NCBI GenBank assembly: GCA_030681595.1
Contig: JAUXSB010000003.1
Span: forward strand, 31,207-95,206
Source: Candidatus Omnitrophota bacterium
Lineage (GTDB): Bacteria > Omnitrophota > Gorgyraeia > Ghiorseimicrobiales > Ghiorseimicrobiaceae
Reading direction: 5' to 3'
DNA length: 64,000 nucleotides
Both the position numbers and the translations under genes were made by a program. Shown piece after piece: positions 47,056 to 61,601 of the stretch (position 1 is its first letter; every line of letters begins with the position of its first letter). Below the pieces are notes generated by a model, which saw only the letters and a list, made by a program, of their open reading frames with translations, ran no database searches and had not been told where the DNA came from.

Positions 47056-47063
47056 ATGAATAA

Positions 47064-47990
47064 CTAAATAGGGCTTAATTCTTTATCGCCAAATTCTTTA
47101 TAATAACGCTTAAATATTCCCCCGCAGATATTCTTCTTTGCGCAACGCTGGCATACAACTGTATAGATCCTCCCCCTAACCGGCCTGTACGAATGCGTAA
47201 CCTTAAGAAATCTTTGGCTACTTCTATGCATCTTTTCGATTGTCGTCCGGGGAGACCACCAAAGATCATTAGAACAGCCCTGATAATTATTCAATATACA
47301 AAGCGGTATCCCAAAAAATCTAACAACCAAAGAATTCCTATCGGCTTCGGATATAATTGTTCTAATGTTTTCTTTAATTAACTTAAGGGGCACGGATAGC
47401 TCGCAAAAATTATCCAAAGCATTGCCTTCAGGAGCAATATTAGAAATGAGTATCTGCTTTATTTTTTTGAAATTAGAGATAAATTTGATTATGCGATCTA
47501 GCGATCCAAAATTATACCGCGTCAATACGATATTAACAATGCCGAATATGTCTTTCGGATGCCTATCTATATTTTTTAACGCACGAAGCAAATTATCAAA
47601 ACTATGTTCGTTATTTGTATGAAAATTATGGAGTTTAGCGCTGTGGCCATGCAAAGAGAAGCAGAACTCATCAACATAATTTAAGGCCTCCCGAGTGAAA
47701 TCTTTTAAATAAAATAATCCTCCGTTACTCGTAGTATAAGTTTTATAGCCTTTAGTTTTTGCTAATTTAACTATTTCCACAAAATCGGGATGAAAAGTCG
47801 GTTCTCCTCCGGTAAAAGTAACATGATTAATTCTTCCCTTGTGATATTTTTCCAAAACGTTATTTACAACCGATTTCGGCAAAAAATACCCTTTAAACTT
47901 TATTAGCTGCTTATGCTCACTGCAAAAAATACAGTTATTTACGCAATCATAGGATATATGCAATTCTAATCGTTGTATATTATTTTCCAT
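47064..47990 (-). CDS. Small radical SAM protein, paralog S6
   Basis: It has DCVNNCIFCSEH, FTGGEPTFHP, SLHGHSAKLHN and IPLCIL. The C-terminus is CQRCAKKNICGGIFKRYYKEFGDKELSPI. Confidence 0.85.
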   Translation of the reverse strand: MENNIQRLELHISYDCVNNCIFCSEHKQLIKFKGYFLPKSVVNNVLEKYHKGRINHVTFTGGEPTFHPDFVEIVKLAKTKGYKTYTTSNGGLFYLKDFTREALNYVDEFCFSLHGHSAKLHNFHTNNEHSFDNLLRALKNIDRHPKDIFGIVNIVLTRYNFGSLDRIIKFISNFKKIKQILISNIAPEGNALDNFCELSVPLKLIKENIRTIISEADRNSLVVRFFGIPLCILNNYQGCSNDLWWSPRTTIEKMHRSSQRFLKVTHSYRPVRGRIYTVVCQRCAKKNICGGIFKRYYKEFGDKELSPI

Positions 47991-47994
47991 ATCA

Positions 47995-48912
47995 TTATTT
48001 AATCGGCTTTATTTCGCGATCACCATAATATTTTAGGTATATATCCCAAACACCTTTACACTTATCAGCAATCTTACAAAATAAACATTTTCTAATTTTT
48101 ATTCGATTAATTATTTTTTTTGACTCGATATTTTCGTACTGTTCAATTTTATTTTTAGATATCAACCGAGGCGTACTTTCAAACGAATATTCATTTTCCT
48201 CGATAGTACCGGATATCTGCTTAAGATAGTCCCCAAAATAGCATAAGCAGGGAACATTTAAAGCCGCATAGCTAACCTCATCATCTAACCGCCCAATATC
48301 TAAAAATTTGCGAATATAATACGCGGCTGTAGAAATACGCGGCGTATATTTATAAAAATCACGCGGGGAACTAACATAAATGAGGCATGCCGTTTTTATC
48401 CCAACACGATAGATTAACTTACCTATATCATATAAATATTTATAATTCTGCTTAACAATTACCGTGTTTGTACCTATATTATCAAACCCGAATTTCCTAA
48501 GGTTGGCAATCCCTTCCTTAAGATGTTTAAAGCTCCCCTCTACCTGCGATAGATAATCGTGTAATTTTGCATTATGCCCGTTGATCGTAAAGATTATACG
48601 AGAAATTCCTGCCTCAATAGCCCTACGAGTAAAATCTTCATAAGAGAAAAACCTGCCATTTGTAGTCAAAGTGATATTTTGAAAACCTATATTTTTGGCA
48701 AATTTTAGCAAATAAAAAAAGTCCGGCCTAATCGTAACCTCCCCCCCGGCAAAAAAAGCATCAACAGCCCCAGCTTTTTTCGCTTCTTTAATCTCCCGCA
48801 TTATTTCCTGTGTCGTTTTAACAGGAATACCCCTATATGCCCTATCGCCGCAAAAACGGCAATAATTATTACAGGAATAACCGGTAAGAAATTTTGCTGT
48901 TTTATCTTGCAT
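47995..48912 (-). CDS. Small radical SAM protein, paralog S5
   Basis: It has SCNNYCRFCGD, FAGGEVT, TINGHNAKLHD and VPCLCY. The C-terminus is CLFCKIADKCKGVWDIYLKYYGDREIKPIK. Confidence 0.85.
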   Translation of the reverse strand: MQDKTAKFLTGYSCNNYCRFCGDRAYRGIPVKTTQEIMREIKEAKKAGAVDAFFAGGEVTIRPDFFYLLKFAKNIGFQNITLTTNGRFFSYEDFTRRAIEAGISRIIFTINGHNAKLHDYLSQVEGSFKHLKEGIANLRKFGFDNIGTNTVIVKQNYKYLYDIGKLIYRVGIKTACLIYVSSPRDFYKYTPRISTAAYYIRKFLDIGRLDDEVSYAALNVPCLCYFGDYLKQISGTIEENEYSFESTPRLISKNKIEQYENIESKKIINRIKIRKCLFCKIADKCKGVWDIYLKYYGDREIKPIK

Positions 48913-48922
48913 TGATAATAGT

Positions 48923-50455
48923 TTATTGCTTGGAGTTAGAGTTGAAGCACCGATTGTACTGCCCGCATTCTCGGCAAAATCCCCGCCATAAGTTTAAATT
49001 GAGATTATCCACCATAAGGCGACTTTGTGTTAACGCCGCAAGATATTTCGATTTCTTATAAATACAATAGATCTCGGAATGATACAACTTCAAAATTTCG
49101 CTGATATCGGCTTCGGAAAAAAATTCTGTGCAATATGGGATGACGGATAAATTAGATTTGGAGAAATTATAAAAATCCTTTAAGGAATTTACTTTACTTA
49201 ATACTCCGTATTTTTCTGGATAAAGGAATAGTGGAGAAGCAGGGTCAATCGCAGTTGAGTCCTGGCGTATTTCAACATTCGCTAATCTATTCCGTATGGA
49301 ATTAATGAATTTTAATGTTTCATATATATTTTTTTTTGTTTCAAAAGGCAAACCCGCGGAAAACGATAAGCATAATTTAAGATTTTTTTTATTGGCATAC
49401 AATAAAATCTCTAATATTTCATTATTTGAATAGCCCGCCTCTTTATTCATTTTCCTGATTTTTCGCGATCCGCTTTCTAAAAAAATTGAAATAATTGACC
49501 CCCTTTGAAATGTTTTCGCGAATTCGTCAATAAATACCTTTGTTGATAATCTGCAATCACCAAAATTTATAGTTAGGTCGATTTTATTTTTCCGTATTTC
49601 TTTAAACAAATCCATAAAATATGCATCATTCTGGCTCACCGCATACATATGCAGTTTATTGATATTATATTTTTTCAGTCTTTTTAAATCCTTAATCACA
49701 TATTTCACATCGGCAAAAACAATTTTACTTCTCTTGTTAATATTTTTTTGGGCCGAACACCCTCCCCCACAAAAAGAACAGCTCCTGACGCATCCCCGGC
49801 TAGCAGTATAATAAAATATTGGTTCGCTATCCTTATTGTTTAAATCCATAGAGAAGAATCTTATATATTTATCGTGGTTACGAATAAGTTTAAAGTTCGC
49901 ATATGATAATCTGTTAATTATGGCTTTGCCGGCAACATAAGTATGGGGGTTTTCAACTATGCCTTCACCGTCTCTCCATACCAAGTTCGGGATAAGGCGC
50001 AACCCCTCCGGAGATTTACTTCGGATACTATTTAAAAGCGCTAATAAAGGGATTTCCGCATCACCCTTGATGACAAAATCTATTTCTTTATATGTACGCA
50101 TAATTTCAGTGGCGAAAAGTGAAGCCGTCATCCCGCCTACTATCACCGTAATCTTTTTAATCCCGCGTTTTAAATATTTAATCGCCTCCAATACTTCGTA
50201 TGTATGCTGATACCAATGAAGATCAAATAATACTGCCCAATAACCTCTACTTATAACAAAATTTTTCAAGTCAAAACTGGGATTTAAGCTTTTTTCCAGG
50301 CCCAGATGAATAATAGACGGTTTAAAGCTATTTTTTGATAAATAGTCTGCGATGCCTATCATGCCGCGAGGCATCAATTTTATGCTAGGATTTTTCCCCT
50401 CTCTGGATACATGGACAAAACAAACTTTATTATTAAGCTTAAGGTTAGCAGCCAT
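48923..50455 (-). CDS. B12-binding-domain radical SAM enzyme (class B)
   Basis: 510 aa. The N-terminal Rossmann-like cobalamin-binding region reads VIVGGMTASLFATEIM...DFVIKGDAEIPLLALL. This is followed by ASRGCVRSCSFCGG and a C-terminal CRECGQYNRC. Confidence 0.75.
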   Translation of the reverse strand: MAANLKLNNKVCFVHVSREGKNPSIKLMPRGMIGIADYLSKNSFKPSIIHLGLEKSLNPSFDLKNFVISRGYWAVLFDLHWYQHTYEVLEAIKYLKRGIKKITVIVGGMTASLFATEIMRTYKEIDFVIKGDAEIPLLALLNSIRSKSPEGLRLIPNLVWRDGEGIVENPHTYVAGKAIINRLSYANFKLIRNHDKYIRFFSMDLNNKDSEPIFYYTASRGCVRSCSFCGGGCSAQKNINKRSKIVFADVKYVIKDLKRLKKYNINKLHMYAVSQNDAYFMDLFKEIRKNKIDLTINFGDCRLSTKVFIDEFAKTFQRGSIISIFLESGSRKIRKMNKEAGYSNNEILEILLYANKKNLKLCLSFSAGLPFETKKNIYETLKFINSIRNRLANVEIRQDSTAIDPASPLFLYPEKYGVLSKVNSLKDFYNFSKSNLSVIPYCTEFFSEADISEILKLYHSEIYCIYKKSKYLAALTQSRLMVDNLNLNLWRGFCRECGQYNRCFNSNSKQ

Positions 50456-50536
50456 TTAAAAGCGTGAAAATGTGTTTTCTTTCGAATAAATACGCAAATT
50501 ACTGTGAATCATTTTTTTAAATTTACGGTTATCCCC

Positions 50537-50775
50537 CTAGGTGTTTAAAAGTATATCCCGTATAGACGAAGAGGTTTTTCCGATATCATCCAAACTTTTT
50601 ATATCATTCACTGTGCCAAAATAAAATTCTCTTTTTAGCTTTTTAAATTTAGTCTCAAGCAATGGCCCCCCACAAAATATATCCCCCCGTCGCAATCAAC
50701 AGCCGGTTCAGAAGATATGATCCGCTCACCTTCCCGAATTTTGAAATTCGCTATAAAATTAATAATCTATTGATA
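50537..50775 (-). pseudogene. Possible decayed or frameshifted small ORF in the only large intergenic gap of the cluster
   Basis: Two overlapping minus-strand frames read ...EGERIISSEPAVDCDGGIYFVGG and GGPLLETKFKKLKREFYFGTVNDIKSLDDIGKTSSSIRDILLNT*. Adding one G in the G6 tract (50666-50671 on plus) would fuse them. No canonical start codon is present. Confidence 0.25.
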
Positions 50776-50800
50776 CTGGGTAAAACTTGCGTATCCATAA

Positions 50801-51742
50801 TCATTTTATCGGCTTTAATTCTGAATCGCCGTATAGCTTATAATAAGGCCGAAAAATTCCTTTGCAAAAATTATTTTTTTTACATACCCTGCATAATCTG
50901 GTTTTAGCGGCCATTGGGGTAGAGCGATTAATTTTTCGCAGGCGCAAAGAACCTTTCTTGTACTCCATTCTATCGTATTGCTCGTTAGCCTCTGCACTAC
51001 AATCATCTATATTGCCTGAAAAATCAGGCAGTACACAAGAAGGAACCCCAAAAATCCTGATATTCATCTTCAGGATTTGAGCTAAATTAAAAATGAGATG
51101 CGCTTTTTTTTCCCATTTACTTAACCTTACCGTATATTCCATGATAAATTTTTTATTTGCCGTTACGGGGACCATATTTGAAAATAACACCCTCTTTACT
51201 CCCAAATTATGCAACCCTATAATTATATCTTTTAAATATGGAAAATTATATTTTGTGACTACGGAGTTAGTTAATAAGTTAATTCGCGGATTTATGTCCA
51301 GGATATTCCGTAAGGCGCCGATTACTTTTTTGAAACTTCCGGGATTATTGGTATGACTATCATGAAGCCCAGCATTATGGCCATGCATAGAAATAACTAT
51401 CTCATCAATAAATGGGACTACCTTAGCCGCGAAAGAATACGAACTAAGCATAACGCCATTAGTGTTAAGATGCACCTCAAAACCATGGCTTTTTGCGGCA
51501 TAAAGAACATCGAAAAAATACGGATACAGCGTCGGTTCTCCCCCGGTAATAAATAGTGAACTATATTTCCCGGAATTTTTTTTAAAGAATGCGGTAATCC
51601 TATTCAAAGCAAAAGGTTGTAGGCTAAGATTCTCCTGTGCTCTGTTATCGGCTTCCAAACAAAAATCGCAATTGTTGGTACAGGCATAAGAAAGCATTAT
51701 TTCTAAGCGCTTTATTTGCTTACTCTTCTTCAATGTATGCAT
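50801..51742 (-). CDS. Small radical SAM protein, paralog S4
   Basis: It has ACTNNCDFCLE, ITGGEPTLYP, SMHGHNAGLHD and VPSCVL. The C-terminus is CRVCKKNNFCKGIFRPYYKLYGDSELKPIK. Confidence 0.85.
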   Translation of the reverse strand: MHTLKKSKQIKRLEIMLSYACTNNCDFCLEADNRAQENLSLQPFALNRITAFFKKNSGKYSSLFITGGEPTLYPYFFDVLYAAKSHGFEVHLNTNGVMLSSYSFAAKVVPFIDEIVISMHGHNAGLHDSHTNNPGSFKKVIGALRNILDINPRINLLTNSVVTKYNFPYLKDIIIGLHNLGVKRVLFSNMVPVTANKKFIMEYTVRLSKWEKKAHLIFNLAQILKMNIRIFGVPSCVLPDFSGNIDDCSAEANEQYDRMEYKKGSLRLRKINRSTPMAAKTRLCRVCKKNNFCKGIFRPYYKLYGDSELKPIK

Positions 51743-53114
51743 CTAAGTCTTGATGTTCTATATCATTAATTCTACTTTTAGCAACAGAATACTTACTTTT
51801 AAAAATATTCATAACTTTTTTGCTGTAAAAAATTTTGGATAAGATAAAATACTGTTTTTTATCCTTAAAATTTGGCCGAAAAATTAAACTGCTGTCTAAA
51901 CAATTTAAATTTCGCTTTAAAAAACTAATTTCTTTTTTAAAGGCCGGATTAAAATCAACGCCAAACAGCTTAAAAAACTTTCTTTTGTTTATCCCTTGAT
52001 AAAGAAACTTAATAATATAATATCTGCTTTCTTCATCCCTGTTCATTTTATAGCCATTATATAACTGGGCTGATTTAAAATAATTATTAATACCGGTTGA
52101 TAAACGGTAACATCTGTTTGCAAACGCATAAGATATCGCGCCGTATCCTAAGCCCAAAATAGATACCTTAAAATCTGGGGACTCAAATAAATTAATCTGC
52201 GGGTTTATTGCTTCCTTTGATAAAGCCGACCCTGCGCGGCCGATGCTTTTATAGCCAGAAAATTTCTCTAAAATATTTCTCTTGATATCAACCATCATCT
52301 TCCTTCTTCTTATGTCGCGTTGCGTAAATTTAAAATTTTTCCTTGAAAATAAGGTATTTTTATCTGGCAAAAAAGGATTAACATGAATAATATCGGGGTG
52401 CAATTTAACAACCATCAATAATGATTTAACGAATGACTGTATTGTCTGCCCCGGTAAGCCAGCCATTAAATCAATATTCAAATACGGAATGCCTATTTCT
52501 CTTGCCTGAGTAAACGCTCGGTAAACTGAATCTCGGGTTTGTTTTCTCGCCATCTTTACCAATACTTTTTTATCCAGTGTTTCTACGCCGATAGTCAGGC
52601 GCTTTAATCCTAGATCCTTAAGTAATCTTAACTTACCGCTATCAAGAGAATTCGGATGCGCATCAATGGCGAATAAAAAATAATCCTCAAAGCAGAACTT
52701 TCCTTTTATGTATTGAATCAAATCTGCAATCTGCTGGTTTCTCAATACAGTCGGCGTGCCTCCTCCTATATATAAAGAACTAAATTTAATGCCCCTGAAT
52801 AGGCTATGAAAAGAATCGATTTCTTTCTTTAAAGCTCCCAGGTAAGTATCAAGCTGAGAGAAACTCGATAGCGGGAAAGAAACACAATTACAATAAACGC
52901 ATTTTGTCTGGCAAAAAGGAATATGTATATAAAGGCATATTTTATTAAGACGGGGGTCTCGCTTTAAATTACGGGCAACGTTTTTCCATGATTTAATAAT
53001 CTCATCCTTGCTAACATTAGACCAAATCAAAGGCGGAGGATATAATACGGGATAACCATCTTCCAAAGAATGCAATGTGATATTTGTAAAAAGCGCATTA
53101 TCCATAATATCCAT
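51720..53114 (-). CDS. HemN-like radical SAM enzyme, copy 1
   Basis: 464 aa. It has LYIHIPFCQTKCVYCNC, LYIGGGTPT and KRLTIGVET. It is a paralog of 45697-47055. Confidence 0.8.
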   Translation of the reverse strand: MDIMDNALFTNITLHSLEDGYPVLYPPPLIWSNVSKDEIIKSWKNVARNLKRDPRLNKICLYIHIPFCQTKCVYCNCVSFPLSSFSQLDTYLGALKKEIDSFHSLFRGIKFSSLYIGGGTPTVLRNQQIADLIQYIKGKFCFEDYFLFAIDAHPNSLDSGKLRLLKDLGLKRLTIGVETLDKKVLVKMARKQTRDSVYRAFTQAREIGIPYLNIDLMAGLPGQTIQSFVKSLLMVVKLHPDIIHVNPFLPDKNTLFSRKNFKFTQRDIRRRKMMVDIKRNILEKFSGYKSIGRAGSALSKEAINPQINLFESPDFKVSILGLGYGAISYAFANRCYRLSTGINNYFKSAQLYNGYKMNRDEESRYYIIKFLYQGINKRKFFKLFGVDFNPAFKKEISFLKRNLNCLDSSLIFRPNFKDKKQYFILSKIFYSKKVMNIFKSKYSVAKSRINDIEHQDLDAYIEEE

Positions 53115-54082
53115 TAATTAATAGACGTGAAATCGTCAACGCCAAAATTATCGATATAATCTTTATATGGCCCGATACAGCTGTTCCTTCTCTTGCAATC
53201 CAGGCATTTATCAATCGGGGGATTTTGAATAATTACCTCCTTAGCATATAAATTGGGGTAAGAATCTAAATTTAAAACTTTTTTATCAAACGCAATACAA
53301 AATGGAAGTTCGGAAGAAGCGTCGTTTAGTTTACCGAATCTCTCCAAAACACAAACCGGAAAACCACGGAGAAATTCTTTTGACTTTTTTAGCTTGAAGA
53401 ATAAATTACGATACGGAACCATTAAATCCTTATAGTTAATGTCCTTGGGAAATGGATGAAATTTAACATGGATGAACCCATCAAAAAAAAATCTTGGGAA
53501 GGCATAATTACAAAACCCGAGAATATCATCTAAAAAACAATAATTTTGCTTTAATACAATGGAATGAAGATTGATATTCAACTCCCTAATCTTATTTAAT
53601 GCGCGTAAAACGCTGACAAGCGCTTCAAATGAACCTTTTTTCCGGACAACTCTGTCATGCACTCTAGCATCGGCGCCATAAATCGGTATATAGAAATTAA
53701 ATTTTAAAGGCAGACGCAAGATATTATCTAATGTATCTTTTTGTCCTAATTTTAACCCGGAAGTATGCAGATTGACTTCTTCATAGCCAAGCTTATGGCT
53801 AAAATTTAAAATTTGCGCTATAAATGGATGTGCCAGAGGCTCATCACCGCTTAAAAATATCTTTTTTAACTTTAGCCGCCTTCCAATGGCTAAAAGCCCT
53901 TTTATCCTAAACAATTCGCTATTAAGGCTATTATTTTTAATTTTACCCGGCTTACCGGGATAATTGGAAGTGCAAAAAATACAGTCATAGTCGCATTTAC
54001 TTGAAATTGGCAGAAGCGCATATTCAATTTTATTTAAAAGGGGCAAATTCTTTGTCACCATAGATTTTAAGGTATTCTTCAA
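53114..54082 (-). CDS. Small radical SAM protein, paralog S3
   Basis: It has KCDYDCIFCTS, LSGDEPLAHP, IYGADARVHD and FPVCVL. The C-terminus is CLDCKRRNSCIGPYKDYIDNFGVDDFTSIN. It overlaps the upstream gene by 32-53 nt, depending on which start is used. Confidence 0.8.
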   Translation of the reverse strand: MKNTLKSMVTKNLPLLNKIEYALLPISSKCDYDCIFCTSNYPGKPGKIKNNSLNSELFRIKGLLAIGRRLKLKKIFLSGDEPLAHPFIAQILNFSHKLGYEEVNLHTSGLKLGQKDTLDNILRLPLKFNFYIPIYGADARVHDRVVRKKGSFEALVSVLRALNKIRELNINLHSIVLKQNYCFLDDILGFCNYAFPRFFFDGFIHVKFHPFPKDINYKDLMVPYRNLFFKLKKSKEFLRGFPVCVLERFGKLNDASSELPFCIAFDKKVLNLDSYPNLYAKEVIIQNPPIDKCLDCKRRNSCIGPYKDYIDNFGVDDFTSIN

Positions 54083-54977
54083 AGATTCCTCCGCATACAG
54101 AAAATAGCCGGCATTTTATACATTTAGCGATTTTTATTCTCGACATATCAATTATATTGCTGGAAAAATTTGATATTGATTTTCGCGTGCTTATTTCCCT
54201 ATTCCAAAGGCACATTTCTGAGTCATTCTTAAACCTTTTACCTATCCTCATCTCTGGCTCATAAACTTCAAAAGCATACATAAAATTATCCTTGCCTAAA
54301 ATACATAACGGCACGCCCCCGAATCTTAACGGTATCCCGGATTCTTTTGAATATTCTGCCAATTTAAGGATATATTGCTTAAGCTTACTAAAATTTACTA
54401 CTAAATTTTTATAATCGTTTTTCGCATTTCCGCTAGGGACCAAATTTAAGTACCTTACGCAGCGGGGGCTATATTTAGACACGACTTTAAATATATCCAG
54501 CAATGACGCGGCATTATGTTTTGTTATGGTTACATTTACAAGAAATGCTTTTTTATAATATTTCCTAACATTTTTAAAAGCTTTTATCAATATCTTAAAA
54601 CTATTCTTATTGCCGGTATGTAAATTATGCACATATTCATCCGGGCCTTGTATTGAAAGGCACAAATCGTCGATATATTCAAAAGCCCTATTGCAAAAAA
54701 CTTTATCGGTAAACATAACACCATTCGATATAACATAAATTTGATAATTTAGATTTTTTGCGGCATGTAAAATTTCAAGAAACTTAGAATGCAAAGTTGG
54801 TTCTCCTCCCATAAAATGGACTAAACGCGCTCCCCGCTTTTTCTCTTTTTTCAGAACTTTTATTATAAATCCAAACGGGAGTTCACTATTATCAAACCTT
54901 GAATTCTCGCTGCAAAAAATACAGTTATTTGAACATTTATTCGCGATAAATAATTCTATCCTGTTTATTTTAAACAT
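54030..54977 (-). CDS. Small radical SAM protein, paralog S2
   Basis: It has KCSNNCIFCSEN, FMGGEPTLHS, SIQGPDEYVHN and VPLCIL. The C-terminus is CIKCRLFSVCGGIFEEYLKIYGDKEFAPFK. Confidence 0.85.
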   Translation of the reverse strand: MFKINRIELFIANKCSNNCIFCSENSRFDNSELPFGFIIKVLKKEKKRGARLVHFMGGEPTLHSKFLEILHAAKNLNYQIYVISNGVMFTDKVFCNRAFEYIDDLCLSIQGPDEYVHNLHTGNKNSFKILIKAFKNVRKYYKKAFLVNVTITKHNAASLLDIFKVVSKYSPRCVRYLNLVPSGNAKNDYKNLVVNFSKLKQYILKLAEYSKESGIPLRFGGVPLCILGKDNFMYAFEVYEPEMRIGKRFKNDSEMCLWNREISTRKSISNFSSNIIDMSRIKIAKCIKCRLFSVCGGIFEEYLKIYGDKEFAPFK

Positions 54978-55977
54978 ATGATTTATGTTTTATGGAAAAA
55001 TGCAGGTCTGCCTTATAATTCATGCCCTGATTTCGTTTCCTGTCCGTACTGATAATGCATGGATACATAACAAAATCATTTTTATCGCAAATTTTAATAA
55101 GATCTTCAATCGCGTTAAGATGAGATCTTAAATTCCAGCATTTCAAAAAATTAAAAATCTCTTTGTACGAGCTACTGAAATCGGAAATATTGTTTTCGTA
55201 AATTTTTAATATTTTTAACGGAATAAGGTGGCCGCCCTTATCAAAACGGTATGCGATTTGGTAAAAAGCGGACTTTTCTTTTGTGAATTTTTCAAAGAAA
55301 TTTTCAAAATAAGCATACTGCCGCCAAGTAAGCAGGTCTCTATACCTGCCTAAACTCAAATGCTTTGAATAATTGTATATTTTAATGCTGTATGTTGAAT
55401 CGCAAAAAAAATCTATCCCAATAACACTTATTAAATAATCTTTTAAGGCAGTAATAATATCTTCGCCATTAAAATTTATAATTTTACTAATAGTTGAAAT
55501 TTTGTTAAGCCTGCTCTTTTGAGAATCAGAAATGAGTAATTCTTCTAAGTATATTTTTAATCTTGGGTATGAGCCTATAGGCCAATCCATGCCGAATGTG
55601 GTCTGATGTTTATCCCTAACTTTTATCGCATTGAAAATCTCTTTAAGCTTGAGTGTGTTGTAGCGTGTTTTATAATTATAATTCAATACGTTAAAAGCAT
55701 TAATTATTTTTTTATCAAATGATTGTTTTTCATTATAATTGTTGTAGGTAAACCTAAAATTTGAAATATGGTCATACCCTTTGATTAAAGAAAAGGAAAA
55801 GTCAAATTTAAAATGCGCCGGGACATCTCTATGGTTGGAATGTTTTATTATCGAATCTTTTACTGCGCTTACAACTTTTTTATTAATGCTACCGCCTATC
55901 TCGCCTAACAGATAGCCTATAATATTCGAGATGGATAAAAAAAATAAACGATTTCTATTTATTGCGCTATCGCCCAT
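54970..55977 (-). CDS. Hypothetical protein (unknown family) embedded between radical SAM genes
   Basis: 335-aa ORF that overlaps both neighbours (8 and 11 nt). It has no Cys motif and no feature I recognise. Confidence 0.5.
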   Translation of the reverse strand: MGDSAINRNRLFFLSISNIIGYLLGEIGGSINKKVVSAVKDSIIKHSNHRDVPAHFKFDFSFSLIKGYDHISNFRFTYNNYNEKQSFDKKIINAFNVLNYNYKTRYNTLKLKEIFNAIKVRDKHQTTFGMDWPIGSYPRLKIYLEELLISDSQKSRLNKISTISKIINFNGEDIITALKDYLISVIGIDFFCDSTYSIKIYNYSKHLSLGRYRDLLTWRQYAYFENFFEKFTKEKSAFYQIAYRFDKGGHLIPLKILKIYENNISDFSSSYKEIFNFLKCWNLRSHLNAIEDLIKICDKNDFVMYPCIISTDRKRNQGMNYKADLHFSIKHKSYV

Positions 55978-56872
55978 ATTTTTTTAGGACAGGGACAAAT
56001 TCTGACCAGCCAAATTTTTCAGGATACTCTTTCCACGGCCCTTCACAAATTTTATAATGATAGCAATGCCTGCAAGACAAATTCTTCGCTTTTCCTTCTT
56101 TTTTACGTACTTTCGTAAAATCATCGATAACCTTTCCAAGGTCATAAATTATTGTTTCGGGTATAATCTTTTCAGCGATATAATCTTCATAGCCTTGCAT
56201 GAAACAATAAGGTATTGCTTCTGTCATGACTTTTTTATTAGCCTTGATACCTATACCCAAACCTTCCTTAACATAGGGCATAACCATTGAAATTCTCGGC
56301 ACAACAGAATAAAAATTATCGCCTGCCGAACCGGCAGCATGGACAAATGCAAATTGAAATTGGTCAACGCCAAGTTTTACCAAAAGCTCAGCGATTTGCG
56401 CTAGATGCCTATAATTAGGTTTAGTAATAACCGTGTTAGTGATTACAGTTTGATTTCGTTGTTTTAAATTTATTATTCCCGCGACAGTCTCGTTAAAGCT
56501 GCCGGCAGAAGAAGTCAAATAATCATGGACTTGGGCGATATGCCCATGGAGTGCCGGAGAAAATTCATTCGCCCCTGCGGCAATAATTTCATCGCAAAAC
56601 TTTTTATAATAGAATATCCTGCCGTTAGTTTGTATTTGGATAATTTTAAATTTCAATCTTTTGGCATGGCCAACCAAATCTAAAATATCGCTTCGTATTG
56701 TAGGCTCGCCTCCGGTAAAAACAACCCCATCGCAGTCTCGCCTGGCATCCTCTAAAATCTTCTTTATAGCAAGAGTATCTTTATCGCTTTGCAGGTGTCT
56801 CTTCTTGCCCTGGACGCAAAACCGGCAATGGTTATTGCAAGCAAATCCGATTTTAATATCAACTCTTTTCAT
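55967..56872 (-). CDS. Small radical SAM protein, paralog S1
   Basis: It has ACNNHCRFCVQG, FTGGEPT, ALHGHIAQVHD and IPYCFM. The C-terminus is CRHCYHYKICEGPWKEYPEKFGWSEFVPV. Confidence 0.85.
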   Translation of the reverse strand: MKRVDIKIGFACNNHCRFCVQGKKRHLQSDKDTLAIKKILEDARRDCDGVVFTGGEPTIRSDILDLVGHAKRLKFKIIQIQTNGRIFYYKKFCDEIIAAGANEFSPALHGHIAQVHDYLTSSAGSFNETVAGIINLKQRNQTVITNTVITKPNYRHLAQIAELLVKLGVDQFQFAFVHAAGSAGDNFYSVVPRISMVMPYVKEGLGIGIKANKKVMTEAIPYCFMQGYEDYIAEKIIPETIIYDLGKVIDDFTKVRKKEGKAKNLSCRHCYHYKICEGPWKEYPEKFGWSEFVPVLKKYGR

Positions 56873-57842
56873 TTTTAAGGTAGCGCACGAAAGATGTTAA
56901 AACTTTATCTACTGCCATTGTAGAATCAAAAATCGGCTTAGAGACGCCCTCTTTAATTATTTGCCTAATATTTGCCAAACCGGGAAAATGAGTTTTTATA
57001 AAAGGAAGGCTTCTAACGGACCCGATCTTAAGTTGTTTTCTAAAAGGGGCGAAATATTTAGCCAAAAATAAATTATTTGTGAAAATGTCGCCATTACAGT
57101 CAACGACTAAACCGGCGTTAAATAAAGGAACGGTATTCGTAAAGTCTAAATTCCTAATATAGATATCCATTTTATTTCTGTTCCCTAGTATAAATCTTGC
57201 GATTTTATAAAAATTATTTTTCAACAATTTTATTTTATTTTTATCCCAATAAATAAAATAAGCCGGCAAAAAGTTAAAACGATTAAAACCCAGCTTCAGG
57301 ACATAGATAAAATTATTATAAAATACCTCTGCGGTATTGGGCGCAATAACCATATTTATAGTTACGCGGCCCGGATAAGAAGAAAAGAGTTTGTGTCTAT
57401 TTAAAATTATTGTATCAAACGATTCTTTTTTATTCTTTGTAATCCTATTGCGTAATTGGGTATCTCGATCGCCATCTAAACTTATAATTAATTCTATATC
57501 CCTGTTTGTCTTTAAAAAATCTATGATTTTATTGTTTAATAACGACCCGTTGGTCGTCAGTTGAAATTGAATTTTTTTATGCAAAATTTCCGCTTTTTTT
57601 CTTGCGAATATTATAATATCCCTTAGCAAAGCAAAATTCATTAATGGCTCGCCGCCGGAAAATTTGATTAAACAATTATCGGGCGCGATTTTCAAAAAAA
57701 AATCTACGGATATTATGGCGATATCATAATTTATCTTTGAAAAATCACGTATGGTTGGACAATACCGGCACTGGAAATTACAGCGATGGTTTATTATAAT
57801 TATTAGTTGCGGGGGGAGCGAATTAATATTACCATTGGCCAT
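56859..57842 (-). CDS. Radical SAM enzyme, HxsC-like (no full SPASM Cys set)
   Basis: It has HRCNFQCRYCPT, FSGGEPLMNF and VDCNGDIF. I placed the start at the ATG at 57842 (MANGNINS). This overlaps the precursor stop by 14 nt. The track's longer N-terminus (MAPMAPMAP...) is the HGS-repeat DNA read in another frame. Confidence 0.65.
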   Translation of the reverse strand: MANGNINSLPPQLIIIINHRCNFQCRYCPTIRDFSKINYDIAIISVDFFLKIAPDNCLIKFSGGEPLMNFALLRDIIIFARKKAEILHKKIQFQLTTNGSLLNNKIIDFLKTNRDIELIISLDGDRDTQLRNRITKNKKESFDTIILNRHKLFSSYPGRVTINMVIAPNTAEVFYNNFIYVLKLGFNRFNFLPAYFIYWDKNKIKLLKNNFYKIARFILGNRNKMDIYIRNLDFTNTVPLFNAGLVVDCNGDIFTNNLFLAKYFAPFRKQLKIGSVRSLPFIKTHFPGLANIRQIIKEGVSKPIFDSTMAVDKVLTSFVRYLKNEKS

Positions 57843-58125
57843 GAGAACCATGGGAACTATGGGAGCCATGGGAGCCATGGGAGCCATGCGGAGTGCCCGA
57901 ATTATGCCCTCCTCTGCCGGCTGTAACAAGAGCATTAGCATGGTTATTATGCGAAGCATGGCTGGCAGCCTGGGCAGAATCAGGCTTAAACATCGCGGAT
58001 AAAACAGCTAAAGATATCCCTATCTTAGCGATATCCTTTTTGCTAATTTTACCTTCTTCTCTTAAAAGGAAATCTTTTATTTGCTTCTTGATCCGCGGTA
58101 ACCTACTTTCGTTTTTTTCTTTCAT
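57829..58125 (-). CDS. His-Xaa-Ser repeat peptide (HxsA-like), candidate RiPP precursor
   Basis: 98 aa. The N-terminus is charged (MKEKNESRLPRIKKQIKDFLLREEGKISKKD) and is followed by the hydrophobic segment IAKIGISLAVLSAMF. The C-terminus is ASHASHNNHAN...HNSGTPHGSHGSHGSHSSHGSHGQW. The DNA has 9-bp tandem CATGGCTCC repeats. A G8 tract lies 4 nt upstream of the ATG. Confidence 0.65.
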   Translation of the reverse strand: MKEKNESRLPRIKKQIKDFLLREEGKISKKDIAKIGISLAVLSAMFKPDSAQAASHASHNNHANALVTAGRGGHNSGTPHGSHGSHGSHSSHGSHGQW

Positions 58126-58154: not shown

Positions 58155-58895
58155 CTACTCTACCGGCTGTCTATCGGCTTCTTTAGAAAAACTATCTTTT
58201 GAAGCTGGATAATACTGTTCAAAGAAATTTCTAAAACTTTTGCATTTCTTGCAAACACTCTCATCCCGTGATACGCTGCCTTTACATAACATGCTAAGGT
58301 ATTCATCGCTTATCTCATTACACTTATTAACATCATTAGTTTCCAACGCCTGTATATAATAAACCCTACCGGTGCACTTCTTATCCCCTTTACTGCAATA
58401 CTTAGGGTCTCTAAGCCTAAGCGCCATACAGTCATTTTTCTGGTCCTTACTTATTGAATTATCACACGCAGCAACATCTTGAGCAAAAAAACTGTCCGCT
58501 ACTTTACGGCAATCTACGGCAGTTGGTTTACCTTCCTGTTTCTGGCAGGCCTCCATAAACTTCTGGGTAACAGAACCCATCACAACCAGTTCGCTAAAAA
58601 ATCTGTGGAAACCATAGAAATTACGCCTACATAAATTAGCTTCATCTTTCGATAAATTATTGCATACACTTACGTTATCTCTAGCGGCTGCTAAACACGT
58701 CAGATATGTATCTAAAAAACCCTGCCTTTTCGAATAACCTTCAAATATAACTTTACTTAAATTGTCTATATTAAAATCATTGATTGCTTGTTCCTTGGCA
58801 TTATCTTCGGCCAAAGCATTACAATTATTAAACCCAACTAAAAAGCATCCACCCAACAAAGCTATTACTAAAAACCTGAATATGAAAGTTTTCAT
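58155..58895 (-). CDS. Secreted or lipoprotein-like Cys-rich protein (about 15 Cys)
   Basis: I placed the start at the ATG at 58895 (MKTFIFRFLVIALLGGCF), which forms an ATGA overlap with the upstream stop. It has a signal peptide with a lipobox-like LLGGC. Cys residues are spread throughout, including CKKC. Confidence 0.55.
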   Translation of the reverse strand: MKTFIFRFLVIALLGGCFLVGFNNCNALAEDNAKEQAINDFNIDNLSKVIFEGYSKRQGFLDTYLTCLAAARDNVSVCNNLSKDEANLCRRNFYGFHRFFSELVVMGSVTQKFMEACQKQEGKPTAVDCRKVADSFFAQDVAACDNSISKDQKNDCMALRLRDPKYCSKGDKKCTGRVYYIQALETNDVNKCNEISDEYLSMLCKGSVSRDESVCKKCKSFRNFFEQYYPASKDSFSKEADRQPVE

Positions 58896-60361
58896 AGCGC
58901 CGCCTTTCCTTTCGTGCAATCTTTTACCCAGCGTTCAAATATATTCTTATATTGACTATTCTGTAATTTTTCAAAGAGATAGTCCAAAATCGCGCCGTTA
59001 ATCTTACATCTTCCATTAAAAGGCTGAAATATATTTTTGCTTTCCGTATAATTTAATAAAGGGCACACACCGCAATATGGTTTATAGACACATTGGCTGC
59101 ACTCAGGGATATTATCTAAACAGGAGCTTATACACATCGCCTTAACAGTTGGATGCTCAATTATATTTTTATATGTGTCGGTTTTTACGTTTCCGACCTT
59201 AAATGATTCATCTCCTAGCCTGCTAAGCATCCTGCCTTCGTCGCATGTGTAGATATCACCGTTATAATTATAAGCTACTTGGCCGATACCGGCGCCGCAA
59301 GGAGAGCGCATATCCATATAGCCGGGGTCATAATCAGTAAGTATTTTATATAGGAATATGAACGCCGTCCTCTCGTAAAAATTGCTTCCTTTTAAATTTA
59401 ACTCTAAGATATAATCCAGGGATTCTTTATAAAACTCAATAAATTCTCCCCACGAATACGCGAGGCTATCCGCCTTGGGCGCCAATGCAAATGTGGACAA
59501 GGGACGTAAATGGATACAATCTAATCCACCCTTTATATACTCATCAATAATCTCTTTGGAATGGCCGAAACAACGATTGGTCACCGTCAATAATGCATTT
59601 GGGCGGTGCTTAAAACCCGTTTTTTCAAATTCTATTTTTATCTTCCTAAGCCACTTTACGGTATTGCGGTAGCTATTGATATTCTTATTAAGGCTTACGC
59701 GATTTCTATTATGTATATGTTCCGGGCCATCAAGCGATGTACAAATACTTACGTCATTTTTTATTAAAAATTTTAATATCTCATCTGTTAAACAACTCAA
59801 ATTAGAAACAAGAGAAAGCGTTAATTTTTTTTCTTTATTCTTATTTTTTTTCTTGGCATATTCAATTATAAATTTTACTGTATTAAAATTAAGTAACGGC
59901 TCTCCTCCTTGAAATTCGATAGTAATTTCGGGGGCCGGAAATTCAAAAATTTTATCAACAACAGACTTGGCTGTCGGGATATCCATATCTAAACCGGCCG
60001 TCTTAATGCCTCCGGAGTTAGCTTGACAATAGGCGCATTTGTGGTCGCATCTTAATGTTACCACTATTATATGCAAGCTAGTCCCTCGAGATAAAAAATC
60101 GTGCTTGTTTGCATATTTGGCAATTAACTTATCAAAATCTAATTTATTACGCACAAAACTTTTGTTTATAAGCTCATCGTATTTAACCTCATCCTGCTTC
60201 ATAATCTCGTTAATCTCTCCCTTTATGAAGCTATTAAACCAGCCCGGTTTTAAAAAACAGTATTCTCCTACATCATTAGTGACAAGATAGCTGCCGTTAA
60301 ACCTCTTGAAACGAAAGTATGAAACCGCTTTCTTGTCAATCAAATTTACATCTATAGCCAT
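58892..60361 (-). CDS. Radical SAM/SPASM-domain peptide maturase, HxsB-like
   Basis: 489 aa. An N-terminal ~95-aa extension precedes RCDHKCAYCQA and FQGGEPLLNF. The C-terminal SPASM-type motifs are CGAGIGQ...YTCDEG...CSQCVYKPYCGVCP. Confidence 0.7.
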   Translation of the reverse strand: MAIDVNLIDKKAVSYFRFKRFNGSYLVTNDVGEYCFLKPGWFNSFIKGEINEIMKQDEVKYDELINKSFVRNKLDFDKLIAKYANKHDFLSRGTSLHIIVVTLRCDHKCAYCQANSGGIKTAGLDMDIPTAKSVVDKIFEFPAPEITIEFQGGEPLLNFNTVKFIIEYAKKKNKNKEKKLTLSLVSNLSCLTDEILKFLIKNDVSICTSLDGPEHIHNRNRVSLNKNINSYRNTVKWLRKIKIEFEKTGFKHRPNALLTVTNRCFGHSKEIIDEYIKGGLDCIHLRPLSTFALAPKADSLAYSWGEFIEFYKESLDYILELNLKGSNFYERTAFIFLYKILTDYDPGYMDMRSPCGAGIGQVAYNYNGDIYTCDEGRMLSRLGDESFKVGNVKTDTYKNIIEHPTVKAMCISSCLDNIPECSQCVYKPYCGVCPLLNYTESKNIFQPFNGRCKINGAILDYLFEKLQNSQYKNIFERWVKDCTKGKAAL

Positions 60362-60561
60362 TCTTTATTACTCCATAAGGCATAATTGGCAAACTCGTCA
60401 ACAAATACTTTTTTAAAATCTTGATCAATATCATTTATTTCTACCTGCGTATAGTTTTTAGTATTTTTAATTATAAATTTCGCCAAATGGGCATAAGCCG
60501 AAACTGCCGCTTTAACCGCCCTCCTATTATATAATTTATTATTAAACTTTAGATTCCACAT
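60352..60561 (-). CDS. Small HxsD-like protein (short paralog)
   Basis: 69 aa. ...AVKAAVSAYAHLAKFII...VEINDI...FVDEFANYALW resembles the HxsD pattern, in which a strand-rich N-terminus is followed by an F-x-N-E/D-x-x-D/N-Y-x-L-R-like motif. Confidence 0.4.
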   Translation of the reverse strand: MWNLKFNNKLYNRRAVKAAVSAYAHLAKFIIKNTKNYTQVEINDIDQDFKKVFVDEFANYALWSNKEWL

Positions 60562-60967
60562 TATCTTTTTTTACTTTTTTATTTTTACCGTATTTATCTT
60601 CCCAGGGCACAGCTATCCCAAGCGGATCATCGCGATAATCCAGCTTTTCATCAGAAGAAAACAAATCAAAATTTGAATCCGGCGGAGTAGAGTATAGGGC
60701 ACGGGCAACAACATATTCGCGTATCTTCTTATTATTTTTACTTACTATACACCTTAAAGCAGAATATAATAGTTCATTCATAAAGCTATCTTTCAGTAAC
60801 TCTATTTGCCTATCGGAAAGTTTCTTTTTGGGCTTAAGCGAAACTACCACCTTCTCGTCTTTACCGGCATCTAAATCCAGAAAAAAATAAATAGAATCAA
60901 TAAAAAGATAACACGTGCTTAAAATGGCTTCTAACGGATATATTTTGGTTCTTAGTTCTATTTTCAT
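60542..60967 (-). CDS. HxsD-like protein
   Basis: 141 aa. IYPLEAILSTCYLFIDSIYFFLD...VVVSLKPK...LKDSFMNELLYSALRCIVSKNNKKIREYVVARAL matches my recollection of the HxsD family (LLNDYxLRE-type motif). Confidence 0.55.
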   Translation of the reverse strand: MKIELRTKIYPLEAILSTCYLFIDSIYFFLDLDAGKDEKVVVSLKPKKKLSDRQIELLKDSFMNELLYSALRCIVSKNNKKIREYVVARALYSTPPDSNFDLFSSDEKLDYRDDPLGIAVPWEDKYGKNKKVKKDNVESKV

Positions 60968-61010: not shown

Positions 61011-61601
61011 CTATGTTTCACAACACATCATCGATCCGGCTTTAGGCAAAACCATATCCGTACAGCTTGTGCTAGCTGCTGAAGTAGTGCAAGTCCCGCC
61101 TTGCGTAAAAGGTATATAAGACAAGCGTGAAGTGCAACTCTCCCCCGCATCAGTACAGACACCATTATTATTCCAATCGCCGCATTGCATCAACGAAGGA
61201 ACATCATTAGCAGTAAAAGTCATCAGACGACAACCGAGTCCTGCGGCTTGAATTCGCGCAAGCTGAGCAGTCCGAATATTCCAGAAAGTTACAGTATTTG
61301 AGAATGTCGCTCCATCACTAATTCTTATCTCTAAATCATTAGCTCCGGCATCACCGCCGATACCGATTACATCTCCATAACCTGTCCTAACTATGGCGAA
61401 ATTCGGCCACCAAGTAACATCACCAACAGGAAAACCAACCCTAGCTCGTTGCGCTTCAAGGTCTCCGTAAACCCCAAAAGGCGAAGGGTAATAATTAGTG
61501 ATGGTGATATCTTCAGCTTGAGATAAAACAGGGGATGCGGAAAATAAAAGGCAGGAAAAAGAAAAAAGAAAAACAGCAACAATTAATTTTACCTTTTGCA
61601 T
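61011..61601 (-). CDS. Secreted hypothetical protein with Cys-rich C-terminus
   Basis: 196 aa. It has a Sec signal peptide with an LSQA|ED cleavage site and a Thr/Ser/Cys-rich tail ending MMCCET. GC content looks higher than in the neighbouring cluster. Confidence 0.5.
   Translation of the reverse strand: MQKVKLIVAVFLFSFSCLLFSASPVLSQAEDITITNYYPSPFGVYGDLEAQRARVGFPVGDVTWWPNFAIVRTGYGDVIGIGGDAGANDLEIRISDGATFSNTVTFWNIRTAQLARIQAAGLGCRLMTFTANDVPSLMQCGDWNNNGVCTDAGESCTSRLSYIPFTQGGTCTTSAASTSCTDMVLPKAGSMMCCET

Follow-up and report, generated by a model that had tools for sequence, protein, structure and literature searches.

The in silico prediction of His-Xaa-Ser systems dates back more than ten years, and their chemistry is still unsolved. 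To our knowledge, the only experimental study of these systems is one from 2026, which reports an unexplained +8 Da on a protein of 214 amino acids. In this canonical HXS antiphage system, HxsD-HxsB-HxsC-HxsA, the +8 Da modification of Escherichia coli HxsA lies on an SHRSS motif, maturation precedes export to the periplasm, and antiphage defence requires every HxS repeat (Li et al., Nat Commun 2026; PMC13128918). Canonical systems comprise four genes without an A24 protease and are often plasmid-borne; their HxsA proteins have 192-214 amino acids, a plain signal peptide of 22-26 amino acids, basic HRS repeats and a peptidoglycan-binding domain. The example used for comparison here is located on Aeromonas salmonicida plasmid 4 (locus L096).

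Two other types of system are relevant for the locus described below. Substrates with class III signals, which are processed by A24 peptidases such as FlaK, PilD and TadV/CpaA, have a charged leader up to a Gly or Ala at -1, directly before the hydrophobic segment. Usually about 20 hydrophobic residues follow the Gly, and bacterial pilins have a Glu at position +5. A simple cyclophane, in turn, changes the mass of a peptide by -2 Da per ring. Triceptides contain three-residue cyclophanes formed by radical SAM/SPASM enzymes on aromatic-X-X motifs, with a bond between His-C2 and the C-beta of the third residue on HAA, HNR and HTK (PMC11499958).

The HxsA4-type precursor gene and its relatives

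The window, i.e. the whole stretch of 64,000 nucleotides analysed here (Candidatus Omnitrophota bacterium, contig JAUXSB010000003.1), encodes a peptide of 98 amino acids, MKEKNESRLPRIKKQIKDFLLREEGKISKKDIAKIGISLAVLSAMFKPDSAQAASHASHNNHANALVTAGRGGHNSGTPHGSHGSHGSHSSHGSHGQW, with a charged leader, a short hydrophobic segment, a 45-residue core and a terminal Trp:

57829..58125, minus strand: HxsA4 precursor gene, ATG start, 98 amino acids and stop (open reading frame call and NCBIfam NF038313)
58018..58125, minus strand: leader, residues 1-36, Lys-rich, up to the invariant Gly/Ala (G36)
57967..58017, minus strand: residues 37-53, hydrophobic ISLAVLSAMF and then K-P-D-S-A-Q-A, with an AxA-type signal peptidase I site
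57832..57966, minus strand: core, residues 54-98, with 10 His spaced as H-x-S/H-x-x, the motif GRGGH and HGQW at the C-terminus
57838..57893, no strand: 9-bp tandem repeat encoding HGS (Tandem Repeats Finder: 6.1 copies, 87% matches, score 75)

The original prediction had described this open reading frame, its three-part build, the His triplets (HAS, HNN, HAN, HNS, three times HGS, HSS, HGS and HGQ, followed by W) and the 9-bp tandem repeat, all of which were recovered. The C-terminal 45 residues include 10 His, 9 Ser and 9 Gly, with a single Arg and no Lys. The repeat consensus on the plus strand, GCCATGGGA, is the rotated reverse complement of the unit reported before, CATGGCTCC, and the repeat contains the palindrome CCATGG. 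A strong Shine-Dalgarno-like run, AAGGGGGGGG, is located 4 nt upstream of the peptide ATG. No terminator was found around the gene, promoter-like sites around it were not clearly enriched (11 versus 6.4 +/- 2.8), and an Rfam search of positions 35000-62000 returned no RNA family.

The peptide belongs to the curated family HxsA4 (NF038313; 60.7 bits versus a cut-off of 55, E = 2e-16), with its residues 9-98 aligned to positions 2-93 of the 93-position model. The related HxsA3 model (NF038309) was matched below its cut-off (51.8 versus 65 bits), and the canonical HxsA model (TIGR03979) was not matched even at E <= 1. The earlier designation "HxsA-like" is thus appropriate with respect to family relationship, but the peptide is an HxsA4 and not a canonical HxsA, with which its likeness is confined to the HxS repeat. 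An identical protein from a Candidatus Omnitrophota metagenome-assembled genome is already named HxsA4 in GenBank/nr, and the identity of the peptide is therefore not new. In our literature search we found no paper describing the HxsA4 family, which is represented by a curated model and a name. A Pfam search with the peptide gave no match at E <= 1; it therefore has no pilin, Flp or peptidoglycan-binding domain.

At least 232 relatives of the peptide were found, and their leaders share the nearly invariant stretch LPxIKKxIKDFLLSEEGKISKK (full leader motif LPxIKKxIKDFLLxEEGKISKKxIxKxG). Among 119 aligned homologues the leader columns are conserved as P (110), KK (103 and 107), F (118), L (114) and EEGK (114, 103, 114 and 102). 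Since at least 232 homologues keep the frame and the non-repetitive leader hardly varies, sequence conservation confirms that 57829-58125 is a genuine peptide gene and not a chance open reading frame. The core follows a regular period, the distance between successive His residues being 3 in 882 of about 1140 intervals of the family. Trp is the last residue in 51 of 120 family members and lies within the final three in 80, and HGQW is found in 20; the aromatic end and the three-residue His spacing are thus conserved in homologues. One locus (L065) carries two tandem copies of the precursor. A conserved leader, a variable repeat core and adjoining radical SAM genes fit the layout of RiPP precursors.

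An enlarged cluster of radical SAM genes

The peptide gene is part of a cluster with the following neighbours:

61011..61601, minus strand: secreted protein of 196 amino acids with a ITITNYYPSPFGVY motif, the conserved first gene of the cluster (homologues in related loci)
60542..60967, minus strand: HxsD, 141 amino acids (TIGR03976, 55.4 bits versus cut-off 50)
60352..60561, minus strand: HxsD-like small protein, 69 amino acids (NF038315, 64.8 bits versus cut-off 41)
58892..60361, minus strand: HxsB radical SAM/SPASM maturase (TIGR03978, 490 bits versus cut-off 370)
58155..58895, minus strand: protein X, secreted, Cys-rich and all-alpha, always directly upstream of the peptide
56859..57842, minus strand: short radical SAM protein, 327 amino acids, with CNFQCRYC and no SPASM domain (Pfam Radical_SAM)
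38795..56872, minus strand: radical SAM array of 15 open reading frames (16 domains) and one non-radical-SAM open reading frame (54970-55977)
37700..38770, minus strand: DUF483-like protein, 356 amino acids, conserved distal module (Pfam DUF483, 22.3, under threshold)
37215..37700, minus strand: TPR protein, 161 amino acids, conserved distal module (Pfam TPR matches)
36033..36956, minus strand: A24/GxGD-type membrane aspartyl protease, 307 amino acids (GenBank annotation: prepilin peptidase)

The family scores of the peptide, HxsB and HxsD bear out the prediction of an HxsA-like precursor beside HxsB/C-like genes. HxsB shows 38% identity over 478 amino acids to canonical Aeromonas HxsB, and HxsD is 30% identical to its canonical counterpart. 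As in canonical systems, homologues of both adjoin a substrate with H-x-S repeats and an N-terminal export signal, and radical SAM-dependent maturation would be expected before export. In contrast to canonical systems, the substrate has 98 amino acids, a conserved leader of 36 residues, neutral HGS/HSS repeats and a C-terminal Trp, and it is accompanied by 17 radical SAM open reading frames, protein X and an A24-type protease.

The cluster extends over 25 kb, and its 17 radical SAM open reading frames contain 18 radical SAM domains, all with intact CX3CX2C motifs. Within the array, 12 are HxsC/HxsC4-like paralogues (including one double-domain protein of 696 amino acids), two are HemN-like and one is of the B12-binding type. 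Most of the 12 paralogues have HxsC4 or HxsC as their top NCBIfam match, with scores of 56-217 bits, far under the cut-offs (500); the best scores were 186.7 versus 267.9 bits for HxsC (TIGR03977) and 216.8 versus 500 bits for HxsC4. Thus, of the companion models of HxsA4 in NCBIfam, that for the HxsD-like protein (NF038315) is passed by a neighbour of the peptide, that for HxsC4 (NF038332) by no paralogue here. The product of 56859..57842 has PapB as its top NCBIfam match (130 bits, under the cut-off of 340), and its orthologues, with 43-45% identity, are located directly 3' of the peptide gene in L002 and L006.

Protein X and its homologues, of which an exhaustive HMMER search found 119 (a word-indexed search returned one near-identical protein), have Sec signal peptides and about 14 Cys. 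A lipoprotein reading of X was rejected because a lipobox-like motif is present in only 7 of 53 members. Homologues of the 196-amino-acid secreted protein are encoded upstream of HxsD in seven loci (L001, L002, L005, L006, L009, L011 and L015); the protein itself is without a Pfam or NCBIfam match. X, this secreted protein, the DUF483-like protein and the A24-like protease are not represented by a model in NCBIfam.

A genome scan with an alignment of 28 peptide sequences recovered at least seven loci. An operon-like order of secreted protein, HxsD, HxsD-like protein, HxsB, X, peptide, many radical SAM genes (16 further domains here), DUF483-like protein, TPR protein and A24-type protease is kept in L001, L002, L005, L006, L009 and L011, and the order in the archaeal locus L007 is related. 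The DUF483-like and TPR proteins are 66% and 61% identical to their counterparts in L009, in the same order. Small homologous open reading frames by HxsB/HxsD are present in every related Omnitrophota locus examined; in a distant relative (L003/L004), only X and the peptide were found, with no Hxs enzymes within 10 kb. Overall, HxsA4 systems are found in Omnitrophota as well as in CPR bacteria and DPANN archaea. In a divergent Omnitrophota genome (L005) the cluster lies between the same housekeeping genes (AMMECR1, RsmE and MtaB). A reading of the cluster as purely vertical core genes was dropped, since its GC content (34.7%) is 7 points below that of its flanks (42.1%).

The predicted export signal and the A24-type protease

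The original prediction noted a loose resemblance of KIG|ISLAV to a class III signal and speculated about a link to the A24 peptidase of the cluster. The latter turned out to be the best-supported addition to the earlier reading. An A24-like gene is present within 8 of 11 clusters, while the other three run off the fetched sequence; in one of these (L002), it follows 19 genes downstream by locus tag. Reciprocally, all 35 A24-seeded metagenome loci of at least 8 kb carry Hxs-type genes (31 of 35 under a stricter rule). The protease itself scores just under the gathering threshold of Pfam PF01478 (24.3 versus 26.5 bits), and several of its homologues carry a precomputed PF01478 match. A profile of four A24-like proteins matched no PDB sequence, and we therefore used fold comparison, which indicated a FlaK-like fold with both catalytic Asp motifs, the second of the GxGD type, and about 170 extra C-terminal residues.

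The peptide resembles class III substrates at the junction between leader and hydrophobic segment. The junction residue is Gly in 107 and Ala in 12 of the 119 homologues, i.e. without exception, and is followed by I/M/L, then S/G and then Leu, the latter at +3 in 102 of 119. However, the hydrophobic region has a median length of only 11 amino acids (interquartile range 10-12), position +5 is V, A or I instead of Glu, and the conserved Lys is located at -3 and not at -2. In contrast to class III systems, the leader is long (36 amino acids) and conserved in sequence as in RiPP leaders, the protease falls just under the Pfam threshold, and pilus assembly genes are absent here. The resemblance noted originally thus holds for the invariant Gly/Ala and the A24 partner, but not for the short stretch, which lacks a Glu at +5 and leads to an AxA site.

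With a positive n-region (KKDIAK), an h-region of 11 amino acids, inside the expected range of 7-15, and small residues at -3 and -1 in AQA|A, the same segment also conforms to the (-3,-1) rule for Sec export and signal peptidase I, although the n-region would be unusually long (35 amino acids). This n/h/c organisation and the AxA site are conserved in homologues; a (-3,-1)-rule site is located 1-3 residues ahead of the first His in 97 of 119, with Ala at -3 in 79. Given a stretch this short, about 11 residues, with a conserved AxA-type site behind it, Sec export and signal peptidase I account for the hydrophobic segment no less well than a class III signal does.

Taken to its end, this would mean that residues 1-53 are a long Sec signal peptide with a single signal peptidase I cleavage, at AQA|A, and that the A24-like protein clears the leftover fragment, as a signal peptide peptidase does, or acts on another substrate. 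GxGD proteases indeed include signal peptide peptidases. In addition, canonical HxsA uses a plain signal peptide (PMC13128918), the length of the h-region is typical of Sec and too short for a pilin-type anchor, and Pro accompanies the AxA-type site just ahead of the first His in the 97 homologues mentioned above. We nevertheless regard Sec export alone as a rather unlikely account, as it leaves unexplained both the invariant junction with its Leu at +3 and the presence of a dedicated A24-type gene in HxsA4 clusters, whose substrates bear the leader, as opposed to its absence from canonical clusters. The prepilin-peptidase-like protease of the cluster probably trims the HxsA4 peptide. More tentatively, it might be a leader peptidase dedicated to a peptide that radical SAM enzymes modify: the leader would serve both for recognition by the maturases and as a class III-like signal, and cleavage at the invariant Gly, after the action of up to 17 radical SAM enzymes, would release the heavily crosslinked His-rich peptide or anchor it on the envelope. 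We found no description of an A24 protease paired with RiPP-type maturation in the literature searched.

A proposed maturation pathway, alternative functions and the gene junction

With moderate confidence we propose that 57829-58125 encodes the HxsA4-type ribosomal substrate that is matured by an enlarged radical SAM system of the His-Xaa-Ser kind. The 36-residue leader would be what the cytoplasmic maturases recognise, namely HxsB together with HxsD or the HxsD-like protein. Before export, HxsB and the 16 further radical SAM domains would then act on the H-x-S core and alter its His and/or Ser residues, as suggested by the +8 Da on SHRSS of E. coli HxsA and by the His-X-X cyclophanes of triceptides. 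The short hydrophobic segment would carry the core across the membrane, and the leader may then be cut by the A24/GxGD protease at G36|I37 and/or the core freed by signal peptidase I at AQA53|A54. This would yield a His-rich, modified product of about 45-62 residues that encounters the co-encoded secreted protein X outside the cytoplasm.

Family scores, conservation of leader and junction, the repeat period, gene order, intact cysteine motifs, the export features of the peptide and of the tightly linked X, and the linkage to a protease that is missing from canonical HXS all argue for this pathway. Moreover, the window encodes no second precursor, and none of its other open reading frames has a pilin-like or G|hydrophobic N-terminus. 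Against it we count the stretch of about 11 residues without Glu, the Lys at -3, the Hxs enzyme-free surroundings of the distant relative L003/L004, and the paralogues, which are HxsC-like but fail to reach the curated HxsC/HxsC4 cut-offs. A further point is the chemistry itself. H-x-S corresponds to a repeated aromatic-X-X register, and HxsB, a radical SAM/SPASM protein as well, shows weak matches to the cyclophane synthases YhhB, XyeB and GrrM/OscB, although far under their cut-offs (58.8/445, 52.4/450 and 45.5/310 bits, respectively). In contrast, the sole mass shift measured for an Hxs protein is +8 Da and not -2 Da per ring (PMC13128918). The earlier statement that no chemistry has been established for HxS repeats is correct in that this chemistry is still unsolved, but it has to be amended by the modification reported for E. 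coli HxsA (PMC13128918).

The HxsA4 substrate is short and has a clear split between leader and core, which should make it easier to analyse by mass spectrometry and NMR. The scale of the system is considerable, with 18 radical SAM domains for one core of 45 residues, and the two-way linkage with an A24/GxGD protease and the invariant junction Gly hint at a route of peptide maturation that has not been described. Its distribution among Omnitrophota, CPR bacteria and DPANN archaea suggests a function in the envelope of small, uncultured anaerobes, possibly distinct from phage defence, the role of canonical HXS on plasmids.

Alternatively, the matured peptide might do the same job as in canonical HXS, namely to act against phages in the periplasm by binding their DNA on entry. 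The homology of HxsB and HxsD to the canonical pair, the dependence of canonical antiphage defence on each HxS repeat (PMC13128918) and the higher AT content of the cluster relative to its flanks are consistent with such a role. We consider it improbable, since the peptide has no peptidoglycan-binding domain, its core has one Arg and no Lys compared to the basic HRS-type canonical repeats, the cluster extends over 25 kb with 17 radical SAM open reading frames, and in L005 it is located amid AMMECR1, RsmE and MtaB and not on a plasmid. Besides, PADLOC gave no specific match but only generic hits at the level of viperin-type radical SAM proteins.

Cleavage at G36 would leave a hydrophobic N-terminus on the peptide, and it is also conceivable that it stays anchored in the membrane or builds a Flp-like fibre displaying the modified His-rich tail on very small cells. 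The G|(I/M/L)(S/G)L junction, the dedicated A24 protease, the mature size of about 62 amino acids, which is similar to that of Flp pilins, and the spread of the system over Omnitrophota, CPR bacteria and DPANN archaea would agree with this. We regard such a mini-pilin as quite improbable, since the hydrophobic stretch has about 11 residues without a Glu at +5, while the conserved AxA site points to release; pilus ATPase or platform genes were found in none of the clusters examined, and the peptide matches no Pfam pilin or Flp family.

The proposed HxsA4 substrate ends in ...CAT GGC CAA TGG TAA, read in the other frame as ATG GCC AAT GGT AA, so that its 3' end overlaps the ATG of the radical SAM gene at 57842 by 14 nt. 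That the region is translated only in this other frame, as a MAPMAPMAP extension of the radical SAM protein, or that the repeat is non-coding has a negligible probability, for although the mechanical list of open reading frames runs the radical SAM gene to 57959 and a similar extension is called in L006, the HxsA4 frame is kept in at least 232 proteins including their non-repetitive leader and is preceded by a strong Shine-Dalgarno sequence, the extension is not conserved (MAPMAP here, MVRMVIMARM in L006), and the L002 orthologue of 318 amino acids starts past the peptide stop. A start at 57959 was rejected as a by-product of the CATGGC repeats, which hold an ATG in the other frame; the L002 orthologue begins near the equivalent of 57842.

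Translational coupling of the peptide gene and 56859-57842 was part of the original prediction and is plausible. As there is no Shine-Dalgarno sequence upstream of 57842, it would be a deduction. RNA structure at the junction was no better than in shuffled sequences (z = +1.24). The overlap is present as predicted but its length is not conserved, with a gap of 9 nt in L002 and of 125 nt in L001.

The precursor peptide and its family

The 98-residue ORF at 57829-58125 on the minus strand scores 60.7 bits against the NCBIfam model NF038313 ("His-Xaa-Ser repeat protein HxsA4", curated cut-off 55), in agreement with the original prediction of an HxsA-like precursor; with the HxsA3 model it reaches 51.8 bits, under the cut-off of 65, and the canonical HxsA model gave no match in the NCBIfam search. 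A sequence identical to this peptide, already named, is present in nr on a 307-kb contig. The identification as HxsA4 is therefore correct but not first: the finding is real and its first interpretation essentially right, while the identity is catalogued and annotated already. Translation confirmed the three parts described for the ORF, an N-terminus rich in Lys and Glu, the middle stretch IAKIGISLAVLSAMF and a 45-residue tail with ten His (HAS, HNN, HAN, HNS, three HGS, HSS, HGS and HGQ) and Trp as its last residue.

The run AAGGGGGGGG is located 4 nt 5' of the peptide ATG, and the final codons (CAT GGC CAA TGG TAA) overlap the next radical SAM gene, starting with ATG at 57842, by the predicted 14 nt. 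The 9-bp tandem array was recovered at 57838-57893 (6.1 copies, 87% matches; Tandem Repeats Finder), its unit being the opposite-strand form of the repeat noted at first, CATGGCTCC. Because the CATGGC repeats hold an ATG in another frame, a longer radical SAM ORF can be read from 57959; this start was rejected, as the alignment with the 318-aa orthologue in the related locus L002 begins at residue 52 of the long form. The rival reading, in which the region is coding only as an extension in the MAPMAP frame, does not hold either, since the extension varies by locus (MAPMAP in the window, MVRMVIMARM in L006). On the plus strand (57807-57926), HGSHGSHGSH can also be read in one antisense frame of the repeat, owing to the palindrome CCATGG within the 9-bp unit; the resulting ORF of 39 aa is leaderless, gives a weak HMM match only (24.6 bits) and looks like a by-product.

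A database search retrieved at least 232 relatives (E <= 0.01), mostly from Omnitrophota MAGs or metagenomes, together with archaeal ones (L007, whose locus carries TBP and MCM, and L008, labelled Nanobdellota) and one from the CPR (Nealsonbacteria, L012). Among the best 120 of these, the three-residue His spacing is conserved (882 of about 1140 His-His intervals), Ser occupies the second position after His in 938 cases, and the peptides have between 2 and 25 HxS units. The C-terminal Trp is likewise kept, as last residue in 51 and within the final three in 80 of the 120; an aromatic residue is found among the final three in 103, and GGWC (22) and HGQW (20) are frequent C-termini. Conservation of the leader is striking: in 119 sequences, the counts are P 110, KK 103/107, F 118, L 114 and EEGK 114/103/114/102.

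Tandem precursor genes are common for RiPP precursors, and L065 encodes such a pair of HxsA4 type (2361-3174). The same type of leader also heads long proteins:

L012 (Nealsonbacteria), 9989-11554: 521-aa ORF, dozens of HSQ/SCH repeats and a domain of ~300 aa
L088, 7644-8447: 267-aa ORF, His/Cys region followed by a Hint-like segment (CFPENT...)

The gene cluster and its radical SAM array

The genes from 61601 to 36033 all share the minus strand and follow one another as listed:

61011-61601 (-): secreted protein, 196 aa
next (-): HxsD (TIGR03976, 55.4 bits, cut-off 50), HxsD-like protein (NF038315, 64.8 bits, cut-off 41), HxsB (TIGR03978, 490 bits, cut-off 370)
58155-58895 (-): protein X, secreted and Cys-rich, then the peptide
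next (-): short radical SAM protein
next (-): 12 paralogues resembling HxsC/HxsC4, of which one has a double domain; a pair of HemN-like proteins; a B12-binding radical SAM protein; a 335-aa protein (54970-55977), to which no family was assigned
end (-): DUF483-like protein (37700-38770, 356 aa, nothing beyond a sub-threshold DUF483 match), TPR protein, A24-like membrane protein (36033-36956, 307 aa)

HxsB, HxsD and the HxsD-like protein all exceed their cut-offs, and the neighbours thus fit the HxsA4 identity, while every HxsC-like paralogue stays far under the curated HxsC and HxsC4 cut-offs. Across 17 ORFs we counted 18 intact CX3CX2C motifs, and 14 come with a C-terminal CxxCx5C; the sheer size of this radical SAM array has not been reported before. 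The order from the secreted protein through HxsD, HxsD-like protein, HxsB, X and peptide to many radical SAM genes is repeated in six Omnitrophota loci; an archaeal locus shows a related arrangement. The paralogue at 42644-44734 (-) is a tandem fusion of 696 aa with two CX3CX2C motifs; fused products in L002, L006 and L001 range from 678 to at least 1309 aa, and one in L002 additionally bears a glycosyltransferase domain.

The 196-aa protein carries the motif ITITNYYPSPFGVY directly after its signal peptide, matched no Pfam or NCBIfam family and has homologues as first cluster gene in L001, L002, L005, L006, L009, L011 and L015; it could be a second substrate or a partner. Protein X always adjoins the peptide. 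Members of its family (119 representatives) have Sec signal peptides and ~14 Cys, and the confidently predicted fold (pLDDT 93) is an all-alpha repeat with no relative in the PDB. That X is secreted and disulfide-rich supports an extracytoplasmic destination of the peptide. In L003/L004 (9208-10330), a distant peptide relative, P0073, is found beside an upstream ORF of the size of X, while HxsB, HxsD and a radical SAM array are all missing within 10 kb. Its maturases may lie at another site in the genome, or the pair may function without any.

The A24-like protease and the leader junction

The A24-like protein, annotated as prepilin peptidase in GenBank, scores 24.3 against Pfam, marginally below the threshold of 26.5, yet D22 and D101 (in AGDAKLF) are invariant across 55 homologues. 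Its link to the peptide, at first called speculative, is now well founded: an A24-like gene is found within 8 of 11 HxsB-containing clusters, with variable position and strand. The remaining three clusters extend beyond the fetched DNA, and in one of them (L002) locus tags place the gene 19 genes downstream. Reciprocally, a metagenome scan seeded with the A24-like protein gave 348 relatives, from which 80 loci were kept; all 35 loci of at least 8 kb contain HxsC-like radical SAM genes, HxsB, HxsD or the peptide, and 31 of the 35 pass a stricter rule. The trio of DUF483-like, TPR and A24-like genes recurs in L009 and in many of these A24-seeded loci. In contrast, a canonical HXS locus combines a plain signal peptide with the absence of an A24-like protease; more than 99.8% of canonical systems consist of four genes (PMC13128918). 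The two-way linkage and this absence therefore mark the A24-like protease as a hallmark of the HxsA4 type with its leader. This association of an A24/GxGD protease with the HxsA4 variant is robust and is unreported in the literature searched.

Within the window, no ORF other than the peptide has a Gly-hydrophobic or pilin-like N-terminus. Of the 119 leaders, 107 have Gly and 12 have Ala as the residue that directly precedes the hydrophobic stretch, and Leu follows at +3 in 102. This invariant junction would be the obvious candidate for cleavage by the A24-like protease; it, too, has not been reported before and represents a processing step open to testing. The resemblance to a class III signal is partial: the Gly-hydrophobic junction is conserved, but the hydrophobic stretch has half the expected length (median 11 residues for the uncharged stretch after the junction), and no Glu occupies position +5. 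Alongside the junction, a Pro and AxA arrangement is conserved, which has the classical form of a signal peptidase I site; in 97/119 sequences the -3 and -1 positions of a site 1-3 residues ahead of the first His are taken by small residues (AQA/A in the window peptide, the slash marking the site). Judged from these motifs, either or both sites might be used.

Chemistry, function and history

The original statement that no chemistry is established for HxS repeats no longer strictly holds, as a +8 Da change maps to an SHRSS motif of E. coli HxsA (PMC13128918). In the same work, N-terminal processing of E. coli HxsA requires HxsB, HxsC and HxsD, all three, and HxsA after maturation resides in the periplasm and prevents the entry of phage DNA. 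A precedent for radical SAM chemistry at H-x-x units is provided by triceptide synthases, which form His-C2 to X3-C-beta rings on HAA, HNR and HTK motifs (PMC11499958); however, HxsB is outside those families, and +8 Da differs from simple ring closure. Modification, cleavage, export and role of the window peptide are all matters on which we infer.

The canonical antiphage and DNA-binding role transfers poorly to this peptide, because its core has one Arg and no Lys whereas canonical HxsA has basic HRS repeats, because Pfam detects no peptidoglycan-binding domain in it, and because the same housekeeping genes as in the window (AMMECR1, RsmE, MtaB) flank the cluster in L005, a divergent Omnitrophota locus. 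The GC content of the cluster (36033-61601) is 34.7%, compared with 42.1% in the flanks, which counts against a simple vertical history; nine related loci shift in the same direction by 1-8 points, and either transfer or amino-acid bias might be the cause. A 44-bp tandem repeat at 35608-35794 (4.2 copies, 96% matches), which gave no Rfam match, is located in the 670-nt gap that separates the A24-like gene from a gene for a Cons_hypoth698 membrane protein.
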